A stretch of 55,089 bases of DNA from positions 1-55,089 of the IMG/VR virus record IMGVR_UViG_3300009078_000004; one strand, written 5' to 3'. The position numbers were made by a program, and so were the translations under genes. Positions 3,125 through 36,529 of this stretch are shown here, piece by piece. Source of the stretch: a virus (lineage: Duplodnaviria; Caudoviricetes). The notes below the pieces were generated by a model. The model saw only the letters and a program-made list of their open reading frames with translations. It was not told where the DNA came from and made no database searches. Each line of letters starts with the position of its first letter. Position 1 is the stretch's first letter.

Positions 3125-3636
3125 CCGACATCGTTGTAGGACGCGACACGTCAGTGTTCTCCCGCTCCCCAGCGGCGGTGACCGCGCGGCAGCGGCGGGC
3201 GTTGGAGCTGCGGGCGCTCGGGCTGCCGCTCGACAAGATCGCGAAGATGATGGGCAACATCCGCGTCGACACCACCAAAGCCCTCATCGACCGGGCGTTA
3301 GAAGCACAAGCCCGGCATCTGCGCGAGGACGGGGCGTGGGAGAAAGCGTTCGTCCTGCACACGGAACGCCTGGACATGCTGATGCGGACGTTTATGCCGC
3401 GGGCGTTGAACGGCGACGATAAGGCAGCGTCGCAGGTGGAGAAGCTGTTGACGCACTACGAGCGGTTGCAGGGCCTGGCCGCGCCGCAGCGCCTGGAAGC
3501 TGAGGTGACCGTGGACGACCGTACCGATGCGCGGGCTGAGGTCATCGCCGGTGTGCTGGCACGGTTGGATGATGTGAAGCAGCGGCAGCAGATCATCGAC
3601 GGGTCCGCCGTCGATGCGGAGGTGGAGGCGGCATGA
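3121..3636 (+). CDS. Probable terminase small subunit (HTH)
   Basis: RALELRALGLPLDKIAKMMG HTH; helical body; follows ParB-MTase and lies upstream of terL. Confidence 0.65.
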   Translation: MTDIVVGRDTSVFSRSPAAVTARQRRALELRALGLPLDKIAKMMGNIRVDTTKALIDRALEAQARHLREDGAWEKAFVLHTERLDMLMRTFMPRALNGDDKAASQVEKLLTHYERLQGLAAPQRLEAEVTVDDRTDARAEVIAGVLARLDDVKQRQQIIDGSAVDAEVEAA

Positions 3637-3833
3637 TCGTCAACGGGTGGCAGCGTCCTTCTCGCAGGTTCTGCGAGTCGGCGCACTGCGTGGAAGCAGT
3701 TCGGATCGGGCCGCAGGTGTTCGTCAGGGCGTCCTGCGAGCCGCGGGAGATCACACTTACGCAGGTGGAGTTCGGGGCGTTCCTGTCGGCGGTGAAGGCC
3801 GGCGAATACGATCACATGGTCGATTCGCTGTAG
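3633..3833 (+). CDS. DUF397 family protein
   Basis: W.RPS..C....CVEA....V.VR.S..P....L...EF.AFL..VKAGEYD pattern. Confidence 0.85.
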   Translation: MIVNGWQRPSRRFCESAHCVEAVRIGPQVFVRASCEPREITLTQVEFGAFLSAVKAGEYDHMVDSL

Positions 3834-3844
3834 CGTGTGCGTTG

Positions 3845-3861
3845 CGTGTACACTGTAGCTG
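3845..3861 (+). promoter_or_regulatory. Putative promoter of the RNA island
   Basis: GTG-TACACT -10 at 3849-3854, 6 nt before the first stem at 3861. Confidence 0.6.
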
Positions 3862-3930
3862 TGCCTGTCGGGGCCGGATATACGGCACCTGCCAAGTTGA
3901 CGTGGTTCACGGCCTGGCAGGCACGAACAC

Positions 3931-4005
3931 TCCTGCGTAGATCAATAGGCAGATCACCCCAAGGTTCCAGGCGGGGAGATGCAGGTTCGGATCCTGCGGC
4001 GGGGA
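3931..4005 (+). tRNA. tRNA-like element with degenerate anticodon arm (pseudo-tRNA)
   Basis: TA-GATC-aataggca-GATC D arm; GCAGG-ttcggat-CCTGC T arm; acceptor stem 6/7 pairs; anticodon arm is a 4-bp stem with a 12-nt loop. Confidence 0.6.
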
Positions 4006-4132
4006 CGTTCGTTACAGTTCGAGCGCCTTAGGTGCATACCTCTCGAACTGTGTACGTCCCAGCTAGGCCCGCACACCGAGGGAGCATCCGCATCACAGGC
4101 TGCGGACCCGAAGGGGCCTAGCTGGGGAACAA

Positions 4133-4207
4133 GTCAGTGCAGCTGAGGGGAACAGCGCCCGCCGTGTCGAGGCGGGAGTAATCCGGGTTCGAGTCCCGGT
4201 ACTGGCG
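4133..4207 (+). tRNA. tRNA-Asp(GTC)-like gene with extended anticodon arm
   Basis: Acceptor GTCAGTG/TACTGGC; D arm GCTG/CAGC; CCCGCC-gtGTCga-GGCGGG; T arm CCGGG-ttcgagt-CCCGG; G discriminator; no encoded CCA. Confidence 0.8.
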
Positions 4208-4719
4208 CAAGGCGGCAACAAGGCGCGAGGCCTGACACCCCCACAAGAGGGGGAAGAACCCCGGACGCTGGCAACTGGCCTTCCGAACGCCGGCTCCTAG
4301 GCGTGACAGCCCGGAGAGACGGGATGGAGACCTGGGGAAGACCTGGTGACAAGTCCGGAGAGACGGATGTGGGAAGGTCAGCTGCACATGGGCGGGTAGC
4401 CGCCCCCACCGGCCCGGCAACCCGCCCGCGGGGGAGCCACCGACAGGGAGACAGCGGGACAGTGACCGGGCCGATAAGGGCGCGGTAAGCGTGTGGAGAG
4501 CACATCCCGATCCCTCCACACCGCCCGGTCACACAGCACACGGCAGCGGGTCGACGACGCTGTACGAACCGGGGCGGATCAGGAGGCCCGGCACGACCGG
4601 CTAGGGATGAGGCCGGTCACCTAAGCAGGGTGTGGTGTATCGGGCTAGTTGCATGAGGGCCGAAGGACCGCCGGCGCTGGTACGCCAAACTGCGGTACCT
4701 GTACACCACACCCACAAAC

Positions 4720-4759
4720 GTTCAGCCCCGGCCGACAGGAGTGGCGACCGGGGCTGAAC
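4720..4759. terminator. Bidirectional terminator-like hairpin
   Basis: gttcagccccgg...ccggggctgaac at the convergence of the RNA island and the leftward operon. Confidence 0.65.
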
Positions 4760-5118
4760 TATGAGCCGGATCGGCTCAACTTCAACAGCCGCTCGCGGAC
4801 GTCATACGCCGCACGCCTACGCGACACCGCCGTCGTACACATCCGGTGATGTGCCAACCACATCCGCGCACCAAACGGACCCGTCGACAGGTCATGCCAC
4901 CGCGGCTCCCTACGGTCGTCCTCCGGCCCGCGCAACGCCACCAGACCACACGCCGGCACGGTCTCTTCGCCGAAGAACGCATGAGATGCACGACCACCCG
5001 TCACATACCGCCACGTAACCAGATACGCGGCCCGATACCGGGCCATGCTGTCGTCCTCGGGTGGGCGCTCGCGTCGCATGTACGCGAGCGCCTCCGCGCG
5101 AACCTCCGGTGTCGTCAC
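4759..5118 (-). CDS. Hypothetical protein
   Basis: Last gene of leftward operon; 4-nt overlap. Confidence 0.7.
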   Translation of the reverse strand: MTTPEVRAEALAYMRRERPPEDDSMARYRAAYLVTWRYVTGGRASHAFFGEETVPACGLVALRGPEDDRREPRWHDLSTGPFGARMWLAHHRMCTTAVSRRRAAYDVRERLLKLSRSGS

Positions 5119-5405
5119 CGCCGTTTACCCTTCGCCTTCGGCGCGTCCACGCCCGCACGCGCAAGAAACTCGCCGTTGTCCGCCACCCACTGATCACGGC
5201 ACACATCCGCGCAGAACATGGGCAGCGCCCGCGGATTGCGATCAGCATCCTTGTACGACCCGAACCACGACCACGACGGCCCCCACACACCACGCGTACC
5301 GCAGACCGTGCACACGTACTCCCACGGCCGGTCATCGGCGGCAGGCTCCCGCCACGCACTGTCGCCGCGGCGGGTCACCATCACCGTGTACCCGTCGCCG
5401 GTCAC
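5115..5405 (-). CDS. Hypothetical protein, putative zinc finger
   Basis: CTVC...FCADVC; 4-nt overlaps. Confidence 0.7.
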   Translation of the reverse strand: MTGDGYTVMVTRRGDSAWREPAADDRPWEYVCTVCGTRGVWGPSWSWFGSYKDADRNPRALPMFCADVCRDQWVADNGEFLARAGVDAPKAKGKRR

Positions 5406-7816: not shown

Positions 7817-8128
7817 TCAGTTTTCCGGGTCGTGTGTGTAGTCGTAGGAGCATCCGCGCTGAAATGAAGACCTGCACGAATCCTGCAACCCGCCGTCACG
7901 GTTCCGCACAGCATCGGCAAGCACGTACTCGCCGCAGGCGAAGACCGCTCGGTGTTCACCCATGGGCTTACCGAACCAGTCGTTGTCGATCGGACGTCCG
8001 ACGATCCAGTCCGGGCCGACCGCTTCGACTTTCACGCAGCCGTAGTGTGAGTTGCCGAAGATGCCCATGCAGGCACCGTGCAGCATCTCGCCGGCTGTCA
8101 CGGCGGCCGGGTCGTGAGTGTGCGTCAT
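7817..8128 (-). CDS. Hypothetical protein, probably leaderless
   Basis: TATGAT -10 six nt upstream of ATG; starts MTHTH. Confidence 0.7.
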   Translation of the reverse strand: MTHTHDPAAVTAGEMLHGACMGIFGNSHYGCVKVEAVGPDWIVGRPIDNDWFGKPMGEHRAVFACGEYVLADAVRNRDGGLQDSCRSSFQRGCSYDYTHDPEN

Positions 8129-8157
8129 GCACACATCATACCGCATACGGGCGTGCG
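8112..8157. repeat. 46-bp direct repeat copy 1 (promoter plus start cassette)
   Basis: 35-bp exact core, 44/46 identical to 11408-11453. Confidence 0.9.
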
Positions 8158-8168
8158 ATCATCAACGT

Positions 8169-35356: not shown

Positions 35357-36529
35357 ATGCTGCCCGGTGGTGACGACGAACTGTACCGGCGCGTGTTGGG
35401 CACGCCGCACGAGCACTATGCCCGGATCGAGGTGTGGTCTGGGCTCGGTGTGCAGCTGGAAGTGTTGGAGCGGCAGGTTCCGCTGCCGGATGACGGGCCG
35501 CGTACCGCGGCAGGTTTGGTGTTCCTGCCGGGTACGCAGGTGTCGGCGAGCCTCGGTCAGCAGGTGGCGCGGACGTTGAACCTGACCGTTCCGTCGTACC
35601 TGTACCCAGTGCTGCCCTCTGACCTGCTCGCCCCGTTCGGGAATGAGATCCGCGCGTTCTACGGTGTCCGTCTTGGTGACGGCGACCTGACCTACGTGTG
35701 GCAGGTGTTCCGCGGGAAGATCCAGGACGTTTCGATGGAAGCGGGCGCGGGCGTCTGCTCGGTCGTGTGCGAGGACCGCGGCCGGGACGTCCTCGACGTC
35801 GGGTTCGTCAGGCCGGAGAACTCCAACGCCGGCGATCAGGTGATCGTCGAGTTTCAGCGGCTCATCAACGGCGCGGTCACCGATGCGACGTTCGGGACGT
35901 CGGACGTGCCCGCGACGCTGGTCAGGCCGTTGACGTGGCAGCAGGACCGCGGCGGGGCCCTGGACGAGCTGGCGCAGGCTGTGGGCGCGTTGTGGTATGC
36001 GCTCGCGAACGGCGACTTCGTCATGCGTACCTATCCGTGGGCGCGCGCGCAGGACCCGGTGGTGACACTGACCGATGCTGACGGCGGGTCGGTGCAAGGC
36101 TGGCAGGTGTCCCGTTCCAGGTCGCGTATCTACAACACGGTCACGGTGTCGGGTGAGCGGCTGAACGGCGACATGCCCGTGTTCGCTACCGCGCAGGACA
36201 CGAACCCGGTGTCGCCTACGTACGTCGGTGGCGGGTTCGGGATCCGCTCGTACCTGTCACGGTTGCAGACCCCGTCGACGCAGGGCGGCGCGGCCGGTGT
36301 CGCACAGCAGCTGCTCCGTACGGCGATCTCGCCGACAGAGTTGTGGAACCTGGACGTCACCCCCGATGCTGCTCTGGAGCTGGGGGATCCGGTGCGGCTG
36401 CTGATCGACGGACGGGATGTGGTGCAGGTCGTTGCCGGGTTCACGCTGCCGCTGGACTTGTCAGGGAACATGTCGGTTGCGGTGCGTTCGATGGTTGTCG
36501 GTACCGTTGACGAGGGGGGTGGGCTGTGA
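35357..36529 (+). CDS. Minor tail / baseplate hub protein (DUF5047-like)
   Basis: LAPFGNE, GDFV, YN.V.V.GE, ALELGD. Confidence 0.75.
   Translation: MLPGGDDELYRRVLGTPHEHYARIEVWSGLGVQLEVLERQVPLPDDGPRTAAGLVFLPGTQVSASLGQQVARTLNLTVPSYLYPVLPSDLLAPFGNEIRAFYGVRLGDGDLTYVWQVFRGKIQDVSMEAGAGVCSVVCEDRGRDVLDVGFVRPENSNAGDQVIVEFQRLINGAVTDATFGTSDVPATLVRPLTWQQDRGGALDELAQAVGALWYALANGDFVMRTYPWARAQDPVVTLTDADGGSVQGWQVSRSRSRIYNTVTVSGERLNGDMPVFATAQDTNPVSPTYVGGGFGIRSYLSRLQTPSTQGGAAGVAQQLLRTAISPTELWNLDVTPDAALELGDPVRLLIDGRDVVQVVAGFTLPLDLSGNMSVAVRSMVVGTVDEGGGL

Follow-up and report, generated by a model that had tools for sequence, protein, structure and literature searches.

A conserved phage island of tRNA, tRNA-shaped and hairpin RNA elements, and a hairpin motif shared by phages of several bacterial phyla

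Introduction

Genes for transfer RNA (tRNA) in phage genomes are usually read as devices for codon supply or against host defence, and the sequence that surrounds them is ignored. The tRNA cluster of phage T4 also encodes two small stable RNAs ('species 1 and 2', rnaC/rnaD), whose function is unknown. Murine gammaherpesvirus 68 makes TMERs, which consist of a tRNA-like unit and one or two hairpins and are cut by tRNase Z, and in MALAT1/mascRNA and the plant mitochondrial t-elements a non-decoding tRNA shape serves as a processing handle. The large RNAs GOLLD and ROOL, similar in size to the locus described here, are likewise associated with tRNAs. In this work we describe a non-coding island at positions 3834–4759 of IMG/VR virus record IMGVR_UViG_3300009078_000004 (55,089 nt, analysed at full length and hereafter called the window), in which a tRNA gene is the minority component of a conserved, structured, protein-free locus.

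Among bacterial RNAs with a partial tRNA shape is YrlA, whose two ends, 5′ and 3′, are both part of the Ro-binding stem. YrlA has tRNA-like D and T arms that are recognised by tRNA enzymes, and Chen et al. (2014, PMC4201824) describe likely Y RNAs in the vicinity of Ro60 for over 250 species of bacteria and phages. In Mycobacterium smegmatis, RNase P cleaves YrlA and CCA is added to it (PMC4201824). An intergenic screen of IMG/VR reported 10,006 candidate structured RNAs, many of them tRNA-like (Fremin et al. 2023, PMC10690425), and according to the text of that paper candidates lie beside terminase and DNA N-6-adenine-methyltransferase genes.

Our analysis points to two things. First, the island most likely belongs to a recurrent, unannotated kind of phage locus in which tRNAs, tRNA-shaped units and other compact RNAs lie together on one strand; we see an even chance that it is a plus-strand cluster of non-coding RNA genes processed as an operon of small RNAs punctuated by tRNAs. 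Second, the island carries a short hairpin motif whose conservation, judged from the aligned sequences, extends to phages of at least five bacterial phyla.

Results

A non-coding island of stem-closed modules

Genes on the plus strand end at 3833 and an open reading frame (ORF) on the minus strand ends at 4759, which places the island between convergent units. We observed no three-base periodicity of G+C across 3840–4760, and the island as a whole (3834–4759) is free of codon periodicity. A first-pass annotation, made by a model from the letters of the window, had called this region the only long non-coding stretch in the genome. It is the longest, with a low-periodicity run at 4171–4860, but not the only one: there are 11 runs of at least 330 nt genome-wide, the others measuring 330–450 nt, and the longest overlaps a second one at 4801–5250. 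Reverse-strand ORFs of 133 and 135 aa resemble a 131-aa ORF of a relative, L003 (see below), in patches only and with differing frame. Because this likeness switches frame between patches, the island appears to be conserved as non-coding DNA.

The elements of the island are collected in Table 1. Twelve segments of the window were folded and their stability was expressed as z, in standard deviations relative to dinucleotide shuffles; seven of them proved 3.2 to 5.0 standard deviations more stable than the shuffles. In general, the island comprises one tRNA-Asp, one non-decoding tRNA-shaped element, eight stem-closed or hairpin modules and three short, weakly supported hairpins. Every element named in the first-pass annotation was found at the position given there or within a few bases of it. 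Thus one of its two long hairpins lies exactly where predicted (4058–4126) and the other at 4005–4057 instead of 4002–4060, and the two stem-closed modules at 4462–4532 and 4628–4713 have perfect arms of 10 and 12 bp, respectively. The 15-bp closing stem predicted at 3861–3924 (module M1) is also present, but 12 of its pairs are contiguous and the further ones lie beyond a bulge. The central block contains the degenerate motif copy (4226–4259), a short hairpin (4287–4304) and motif copy 1 (4297–4330).

Table 1. Features of the island, with positions in the window (z, stability relative to dinucleotide shuffles; R2, covariance model of the hairpin motif; L003, relative from a metagenome; X3, a sequencing run)
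Feature	Positions	Strand	Evidence
Upstream block with −10-like hexamer TACACT (3849–3854)	3834–3856	+	19 of the first 21 aligned columns identical in L003
Module M1, stem-closed 64-nt RNA	3861–3924	+	z −4.5
tRNA-like element 1	3931–4005	+	Rfam tRNA 30.4 bits, cut-off 29
Hairpin module 2	4005–4057	+	z −3.6; start is the exact end of tRNA-like 1
Hairpin module 3, perfect 13-bp closing stem	4058–4126	+	z −5.0
tRNA-Asp, anticodon GTC	4133–4208	+	ARAGORN; Rfam RF00005 34.1 bits, cut-off 29
Central conserved block	4209–4330	+	86% mean column identity with L003
Degenerate motif copy (variable hairpin of the central block)	4226–4259	+	R2 13.0 bits, E 0.28
Motif copy 1: UGACAG, 5-bp hairpin, GAGAGA loop	4297–4330	+	R2 33.2 bits, E 3e-6
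Motif copy 2: UGACAAG, 4-bp hairpin, GAGAGA loop	4340–4374	+	R2 16.1 bits, E 0.049
GC-rich hairpin module	4390–4427	+	13-nt arms, 92% complementary; z −3.3; covered by X3 contigs
Stem-closed 71-nt module	4462–4532	+	perfect 10-bp arms; z −3.2
Three short hairpins (~4541–4566, 4569–4591, 4595–4618)	4541–4618	+	fold of 4533–4623 weakly better than shuffles, z −1.9
3′ module, 86 nt, three-way junction	4628–4713	+	12–13-bp closing stem, two inner hairpins; z −3.3
Terminal hairpin, terminator candidate	4720–4759		18-nt arms, 89% complementary; z −4.9

tRNA and tRNA-shaped units

ARAGORN called a single tRNA in the whole window, the tRNA-Asp(GTC) at 4133–4208. With a score above the Rfam cut-off (34.1 bits) and a 7-nt anticodon loop, it belongs to the tRNA family, and what the first-pass annotation had cautiously termed a tRNA-Asp-like gene is a real one. 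Supply of a rare codon is an unlikely role, because tRNA-Asp(GUC) reads GAC, the commonest Asp codon of this phage (468 GAC versus 106 GAT in 16 long genes). For the tRNAs of mycobacteriophages, resistance to anticodon-directed host nucleases has been proposed in one report (PMC10264068); by analogy, such a role is possible for the tRNA-Asp.

The annotated pseudo-tRNA upstream is likewise real as a shape (3931–4005, 30.4 bits). It has an acceptor stem, a D arm and a T arm, together with a 4-bp 'anticodon stem' that carries a 12-nt loop; the acceptor stem contains a G-G mismatch, and in the T loop a G replaces A. Default ARAGORN did not call it, and when forced the program gave inconsistent answers, Trp with a 3-nt 'intron' versus Asn at a lowered threshold. 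Because of the 12-nt loop, the lack of a default call and the disagreement of the forced ones, we regard the element as tRNA-shaped but unable to decode, and not as a tRNA proper. The intron-mode Trp and Pro calls were rejected as artefacts, and the transfer-messenger RNA mode at low threshold gave solely implausible permuted calls.

The acceptor 3′ strand of tRNA-like 1 can alternatively pair with 4054–4063 (region 3999–4070). As that segment overlaps the 5′ strand of hairpin 3 (4058–4070), the result would be a chain of mutually exclusive helices.

An anticodon loop that cannot be used, a mismatched acceptor stem and an altered T loop are also what one would expect of a tRNA array in decay, in which nothing but the tRNA-Asp still functions, tRNA-like 1 being a pseudogene and the hairpins inert leftovers or spacers. 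The comparisons that follow bear on this alternative.

Conservation and covariation in a relative

L003 is a metagenome contig of 6,935 bp, found through the 171-aa protein that flanks the island (64% identity); it was the one confirmed locus among 374 pattern matches in a metagenome scan. In a collection of 5.8 billion proteins, the 171-aa protein had 24 matches, the window's own and 23 others at 63–78% identity, all metagenomic. The order of elements in L003, namely a 168-aa gene, a DUF397-like gene, the non-coding island and leftward genes, is the same as in the window. The island measures 925 nt in the window versus ~665 nt in L003, and both keep the upstream block, M1, the central block, the 86-nt 3′ module and a strong terminal hairpin. 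The variable hairpin of the central block has a different, self-complementary sequence in L003.

The tRNA-shaped units differ. In L003 a single 102-nt unit (its tRNA-like 1; Rfam tRNA 43.8 bits), with a 40-nt insert replacing the anticodon loop, stands where the window has its own tRNA-like 1, the two hairpins and the tRNA-Asp. Past the central block lies its tRNA-like 2, which scores 30.7 bits with the same model and contains a 28-nt insert. One insert, in the anticodon arm of tRNA-like 2, forms a rod of 4 + 11 pairs around a 1×1 internal loop with a GAAA cap. Default ARAGORN called neither of the two L003 units.

RNAalifold, run on pairwise alignments of the window and L003, kept all helices. 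The first-pass annotation had suggested looking for covariation among homologues, and pairs changed on both sides were indeed observed in the central block (2 of 25 pairs) and in the 3′ part (9 of 42, six of them inside the 3′ module). For the 3′ module itself 35 pairs are predicted: six changed on both sides, one on one side, none broken and one gapped in the window row. The closing stem of M1 has 10 pairs in L003, with three one-sided changes between G-C and G-U and none on both sides. The G-U pairs in the conserved stems fit the plus strand only.

Such conservation argues against decay. The central block keeps 86% column identity whereas the flanking protein keeps 64%, and the stems of the 3′ part stay paired through their nine both-sided changes.

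The same comparison bears on whether the island is one large ornate RNA of ~900 nt, folded as a single molecule in the manner of GOLLD or ROOL, a possibility that the first-pass annotation had raised. The fold of the whole region beats its shuffles (z −5.1 on the plus strand, −4.2 on the minus strand), and some long-range pairs are predicted. However, the strong helices are all local, each module closing on itself, and the reverse strand is nearly as stable as the forward one, as local hairpins predict. Whole modules are present or absent between the longer and the shorter island, and a cmscan search against Rfam gave no match at gathering scores to any large-RNA family in the window. We consider a single large molecule very improbable.

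Exchange of modules in soil-metagenome contigs

A small share (0.05–0.11) of the words was found in 13 of 15 listed runs, almost all of them soil metagenomes and none recorded as RNA, and contigs of four runs (X1, X3, X5 and X10) were aligned to the island at a likeness of at least 80%. In these contigs parts of the island are replaced or reordered at four joints: 3998→4208, 4133→3948, 4309→4352 and 4459→4626. The first two joints fall at borders of tRNA-shaped units. At the third, an X10 contig carries 181 nt of other sequence, and at the fourth an X5 contig carries 126 nt; an X10 contig covers 4436–4533 with three differences and one gap. In an X3 contig, 16 new bases come after the hairpins (4005–4133), and then the body of tRNA-like 1 (3948–3998), seven new bases and the central block from 4208 onward. 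On our interpretation of these joints, the odd tRNA-like body would occupy the slot of the tRNA-Asp, with a different, self-complementary acceptor stem. In the loose ends of X1 and X3 contigs a different T-arm-like sequence precedes hairpin 2, and the aligned parts start right behind it, at 4001 and 4005.

Because these joints swap, lose or replace whole modules, we read the island as a set of exchangeable units under selection and not as a single rigid molecule. Contigs of X3 and X10 carry a paired change in the anticodon stem of the tRNA-Asp: 4160 C>T and 4174 G>A, at positions 28 and 42 of the tRNA, occur together.

In the X1 contig, which is ~97% identical to the window (10 differences over 4001–4318), 4168 C>T at anticodon position 36 turns GTC (Asp) into GTT (Asn). 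Both anticodons are of the GUN type.

Module content that differs among relatives, and the several segments that fold no better than shuffles, could again be taken as signs of decay. Yet the odd anticodon region recurs at a likeness of at least 80% in the X3 relative with a different acceptor stem, if the joints are read as above. Units with an enlarged anticodon arm recur in L003 and in phage BS-TP2, with a further one in phage Itty13 when ARAGORN is forced to allow an intron, and the motif described next is conserved across phages of at least five phyla. Decay of a tRNA array is, in our judgement, an unlikely explanation.

A hairpin motif shared among phages

A short-query blastn search of the central block against cultured phages (E ≤10) matched its last 22–42 nt, which comprise the first GAGA-type hairpin and the flank 5′ of it. 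The first matches lay in unannotated DNA of Ralstonia, Pseudomonas, Rhodobacter, Synechococcus/Planktothrix, Mannheimia and other phages. In consensus the shared element reads (C)GUGACAG, then a 5-bp helix with the loop G-A-R-A-G-A, and CAC often comes next; we refer to it as the UGACAG-GARAGA motif. Counted as records and not as lineages, with GenBank/RefSeq duplicates and close kin included, a 43-nt query matched 34 phage records: 27 with no feature at the site, two with a predicted promoter, one unannotated and four with a hypothetical protein. A variant query from Stenotrophomonas phage BUCT708 matched 50 (33 with no feature, three unannotated records, 10 hypothetical proteins and four named proteins); the four matches in named proteins, of 17 nt, are probably due to chance. 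This query added Xanthomonas and Bacillus phages and a Halorubrum tailed virus, phages of Bacteroides, Erwinia and Stenotrophomonas being already in the first set.

We examined 16 loci (L009–L024) and collected 26 instances. The helix is 90.8% paired in these, whereas slid controls were 18–42% paired; both-sided changes occupy 15 cells, and 10 additional pair types occur. The covariation score is 0.414 versus 0.130 in shuffles, and none of 500 shuffles reached the score, the pairing percentage or the cell count. Nine columns are invariant, forming the GACA flank and the GGA...AC frame of the loop. A model of the motif, R1, gave 32 hits at E ≤1 in 112 kb, all on the plus strand of the loci and none on the opposite one. 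In five whole phage records the copies sit at one locus, except for a weak 15.9-bit hit elsewhere in the Bacillus phage.

The window holds what the first-pass annotation had described as twin GAGA-type hairpins, CCCG-GAGAGA-CGGG at 4310–4323 and CCG-GAGAGA-CGG at 4355–4366. Their common 12-mer occurs at these two places only in the window, and 15 of 100 shuffles give two or more such places, so that this count on its own is compatible with chance. For an independent ranking we used R2, a covariance model built from 23 instances of other phages with the window and L003 excluded. Run unfiltered over the window and L003 (62 kb, both strands), R2 had its top four hits all in the two islands: window 4297–4330 at 33.2 bits, L003 4746–4779 at 32.4, copy 2 at 16.1 and the degenerate copy at 13.0, the next hit scoring 10.7 bits. 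Because a model built without these sequences ranks the island copies first, we assign the twin hairpins and the degenerate third copy to the motif; copy 1 alone is a confident member, copy 2 being weaker.

Judged from the phage records matched by blastn, the motif is kept in phages whose hosts span at least five bacterial phyla, Actinobacteria, Proteobacteria, Cyanobacteria, Bacteroidota and Bacillota; haloarchaeal viruses possibly carry it as well. Rfam searches yielded no name for it, nor did they return anything at E ≤1 in four motif loci, and a full-text search with six motif strings found no paper on a phage or RNA topic by title or abstract.

Neighbourhood of the motif

Nine loci hold the motif together with a tRNA, a tRNA-like unit or a T-arm: those of the window, L003, Itty13, Mannheimia, phiM9, BS-TP2, phiEt88, ct7L0027 and FoX2. 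In all nine the unit lies on the strand of the motif. The distance from the end of the motif helix to the unit behind it is 2 nt for tRNA-like 2 of L003, 4 nt for a tRNA-like unit of 108 nt in Bacteroides phage BS-TP2 and 6 nt for a tRNA-Met of Caudoviricetes ct7L0027. The BS-TP2 unit scores 40.1 bits with the Rfam tRNA model, contains a 43-nt insert and is not called by default ARAGORN. In Itty13, ARAGORN forced to allow an intron called a 100-nt unit, and the Rfam tRNA model had no hit in that island.

Three cultured phages offer further observations. In Pseudomonas phage Itty13 (L012, 1457–2338) an unannotated gap of 880 nt adjoins the small-terminase gene and holds two motif-like hits and two T-arms, one of the latter within a tRNA-like unit closed by a stem of at least ~20 pairs. 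Xanthomonas phage FoX2 combines a cluster of unusual tRNAs with stem-closed modules and as many as three hits of the motif, of which one is strong and two are weak. Two annotated hypothetical proteins of ~30 aa that overlap its motif and RNA-like modules (L023, 769–952) are probably not genes, and the 99-nt 'tRNA-Leu' of the FoX2 record is a 94-nt tRNA-Pro(ggg) according to ARAGORN. In Bacillus phage 035JT001 (L020, 530–1620) more than 1 kb past the capsid maturation protease gene is unannotated; it contains a motif copy at 794–827, and no tRNA-like unit was found in the stretch.

The genes beside the motif vary and include DNA methylase, HNH endonuclease, integrase, Cro-type and antiterminator genes. 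No single protein partner is evident beside the motif loci.

These neighbourhoods have to be weighed against a function of the island as DNA, be it a packaging site, an origin of replication or priming, a recombination hot spot or an array of mobile cassettes. Such a function would fit the adjoining possible small-terminase gene and the exchange of modules between relatives. It would also fit the occurrence of the motif near genes for the small terminase (GP4, Itty13), HNH proteins (GP4, MinM2, BS-TP2), primase (MinM2) and DNA methylases (RcCWillis, the Halorubrum virus, RS-CA1). On the other hand, the G-U pairs of the conserved stems become A-C mismatches on the opposite strand, motif hits keep to the strand of neighbouring tRNA genes (0 of 32 at E ≤1 opposite), and the gene neighbourhoods across phages are inconsistent with one DNA function. 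We give a DNA-level element little credence.

A further alternative is that the motif controls transcription in cis, as in antitermination by lambda boxB or HK022 put, and that the island is a leader or regulatory region. The motif hairpin, with its GC stem and purine-rich 6-nt loop, appears to resemble the boxB hairpin of the lambda nut sites. It comes after Cro/CI-type regulator genes in BUCT708 and after the gene of an antitermination protein in phiEt88; copies also come in twos or threes, as with putL and putR. However, no plus-strand gene follows the island in the window or in L003, where convergent genes end it. We know of no N-type proteins outside lambdoid phages, and the motif occurs well beyond that range, in actinobacterial, Bacteroides and Bacillus phages and in a haloarchaeal virus. 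According to one account of ten aligned put sequences, put RNAs measure ~70 nt and have two stem-loops, and one interaction described with RNA polymerase is perhaps specific to gamma-proteobacteria (PMC9378689); the motif is about half that size. Antitermination thus has a slim chance, in our estimate.

Signals at the ends of the island

The first-pass annotation had placed a TACACT −10 element six nt ahead of the closing stem of M1. The hexamer is there, six nt before the first paired base (3861), and the predicted transcript would start at the base of M1. The counterpart in L003 is TACAGT, 7 nt before its module, and the same upstream block was found on the loose end of a contig from run X1. 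As a promoter motif repeated in the genome the block was rejected, since 8 matches with up to two mismatches compare with 7.8 expected.

At the other end, the annotated terminator corresponds to a strong hairpin (4720–4759), but one without a U-tract or a call by the terminator scan. No T-run follows on the plus strand, and the reverse strand shows GTTTGTG past the stem. Actinobacterial terminators often have no U-tract. In L003 a hairpin of equal strength and unrelated sequence stands at the same position.

Just past the terminal hairpin, a small hairpin (4763–4777) and the block CTATGAGC...GGCTCAACT are kept in L003. In the adjoining 119-aa ORF (4759–5118, minus strand) codon periodicity is weak; it has no match in PHROG or Pfam, and BLASTP showed no similarity to the single L003 ORF used for comparison. 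In L003 the leftward gene matching window 5115–5405 directly follows the island, as read from the sequence and the ORF list by eye and not from an alignment. Because the L003 island runs directly into this counterpart, the non-coding region of the window may extend to about 5115.

Searches for known families and relatives

An Rfam search of 3700–4900 up to E = 10 returned nothing but tRNA and noise, the latter including a Twister-P5 hit across the twin hairpins (14.3 bits, E 5.3). The YrlA model (RF02553) was rejected: its best score in the genome, 14.5 bits, lies outside the island at 36200–36306, and in L003 it reached 18.4 bits against a cut-off of 69. The TROVE domain (PF05731) had no match in the genome, in a search to which control genomes responded. 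A possible likeness of the motif to conserved regions of bacterial RNase P RNA (RF00010) was also dismissed, with no match at E ≤10 in the genome, in a search to which 11 of 14 control genomes responded.

Among 50,697 phage records, neither megablast nor blastn found a match to the island at E 1e-5, and tblastn of the 171-aa protein gave none among cultured phages. Scans of viral contigs with single flanking proteins or the portal found no relatives. A scan with an alignment of the flanking protein found one distant hit, L004 (30%), which has no ARAGORN tRNA and no hit of the R1 motif model. DNA patterns of the island gave three hits in viral contigs, all of them, judged by eye, chance matches inside coding sequence, and further patterns gave none. 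Among genome contigs there were no matches to the DNA pattern or to the protein alignment, and no prophage copies were seen. Searching cultured phages with the 3′ module and M1 returned nine records at E 2–6 that are not credible; seven fall under annotated hypothetical-protein genes and two in records without annotation. In the literature on phage tRNA-like RNAs we found no description of the island or the motif, although the supplements of PMC10690425 may list them.

The genome around the island

The IMG/VR record is a complete virus record of 55,089 bp, with 61–71% G+C in 1-kb windows. Its products include a portal, head and tail proteins of the siphovirus type and a large terminase of 932 aa. 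A direct repeat of exactly 123 nt is present at its two ends (1–123 and 54967–55089); because the repeat falls inside a frame running open off the start of the record, it is probably an assembly overlap from a circular or permuted assembly and does not mark physical genome ends. No close relative was found among the 50,697 cultured-phage records, the portal being at best ~30% identical, mostly to actinobacterial phages. The protein encoded directly upstream of the island is DUF397-like (23.5 bits, cut-off 24), a family typical of Streptomyces.

The first-pass annotation had placed the island in the packaging region, which is weakly supported: the 171-aa neighbour upstream resembles a small terminase subunit only by position and by a sub-threshold helix-turn-helix match, and a distance of 3.4 kb separates the island from the gene of the large terminase. 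This terminase (8118–10916, plus strand) has LAGLIDADG and Hom_end matches at residues ~365–421, both just below the Pfam cut-offs, and its terminase N- and C-domains at residues 505–901 of the 932; it looks like an intein-bearing terminase. At 14569–17925 (plus strand) lies the gene of a 1,118-aa MuF/portal-associated head protein with a C-terminal match to ADP-ribosyltransferases (phrog_3895, residues 946–1107, E 3e-13; also the Alt-like phrog_802).

Discussion

Besides one large RNA, the first-pass annotation had considered a polycistron of ~65–85-nt small RNAs released by tRNA processing. This second possibility fits all the evidence, because a promoter-like block, covarying modules, tRNA and tRNA-like units on one strand and a terminal hairpin are found together; the units, however, measure ~40–115 nt. 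The processing, like the transcription, the stability of the products and their roles, is what we infer. A single precursor would begin at the −10-like element, with additional read-through from upstream, and would stop at the terminal hairpin. Host enzymes of tRNA maturation may recognise the tRNA-shaped units, with 5′ cuts made by RNase P and 3′ cuts by RNase Z or other enzymes that act at that end, and this cleavage would release stable small RNAs. The motif could serve as a punctuation or recognition element, either as an end-protecting hairpin or as a docking site for a conserved factor. With low confidence, we suggest that the released RNAs divert RNA-targeting defences of the host, or RNA-binding factors, by acting as decoys or sponges.

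Several results weigh against processing of the island as an operon of small RNAs. The folds of the central block (z −0.8) and of tRNA-like 1 (z −0.2) are no better than those of shuffles. The tRNA-Asp has C at position 8, where U is usual in tRNAs. In the M1 alignment, five of 17 pairs are changed on one side and none on both. The covariation in the island rests on one full-length relative, L003, and most modules between 4326 and 4623 fall outside the comparison. Because the instances of the motif were collected for their similarity to the window, their conservation figures are biased, though not their pair covariation. A hairpin upstream of the motif, considered as part of it, is present in 20 of 26 instances; shuffles average 14.8 with a standard deviation of 2.6, so that an excess over chance is not clear. 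A consensus scan of 3500–5200 called no sigma-70 promoter and no terminator, and the convergent arrangement of genes leaves no target or partner evident for an operon at its end. Finally, neither clear motif copy of the window is followed by a tRNA-shaped unit; because of this, the punctuation role is read across from other phages.

A broader proposal, more speculative than the operon itself, is that the motif is an undescribed general RNA signal of phages. Together with the universal tRNA-maturation machinery of the host it would define the ends of a hidden class of small phage RNAs, tRNA-shaped or stem-closed, as a bacterial counterpart of the herpesvirus units, and these RNAs might act as decoys against RNA-targeting defences or hijack tRNA-binding factors. 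We regard this as doubtful, though worth stating. If the motif had a universal host partner, it would be one of few RNA elements common to phages across bacterial phyla.

It is worth stressing that comparable islands, likewise free of annotation and with unusual tRNA-like units, occur in three cultured phages, Itty13 of Pseudomonas, FoX2 of Xanthomonas and BS-TP2 of Bacteroides, and that these share a 20-nt hairpin signal with each other and with Bacillus phage 035JT001. The role of non-tRNA stable RNAs in phage tRNA clusters can thus be tested in tractable hosts, and the models R1 and R2 provide a sequence handle for finding such loci in virus collections.

Comparison with known systems

Like boxB and put, the motif has a short GC stem and a purine-rich loop and occurs in at least two copies per phage. 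It differs in its loop of 6 nt instead of 5, in an invariant UGACAG flank in place of boxA, in a distribution far beyond the lambdoids and in having no downstream genes. The text of the IMG/VR screen by Fremin et al. (2023, PMC10690425) describes neither the island nor the motif.

With YrlA the island shares the general character of a non-coding RNA with tRNA-like arms. YrlA, however, lies beside Ro60/Rsr, whereas the genome of the island has no TROVE protein and the tRNA-like units have normal tRNA topology; with no model match either, we rejected the idea of a YrlA or other Y RNA locus.

The likeness to TMERs is one of layout only, tRNA-like 1 being followed by the hairpins at 4005–4057 and 4058–4126, and it is an analogy. 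TMERs are eukaryotic, and their hairpins feed the microRNA pathway, which bacteria lack.

The T4 cluster offers an analogy to the way in which the proposed operon would work. There, tRNAs and non-tRNA stable RNAs are co-transcribed and processed by host enzymes, and the same may hold for the island. The two are not related in sequence. The island has one decoding tRNA, more non-tRNA modules and the UGACAG-GARAGA motif, and its lineage, unlike that of T4, has several tRNA-shaped units without an anticodon loop.

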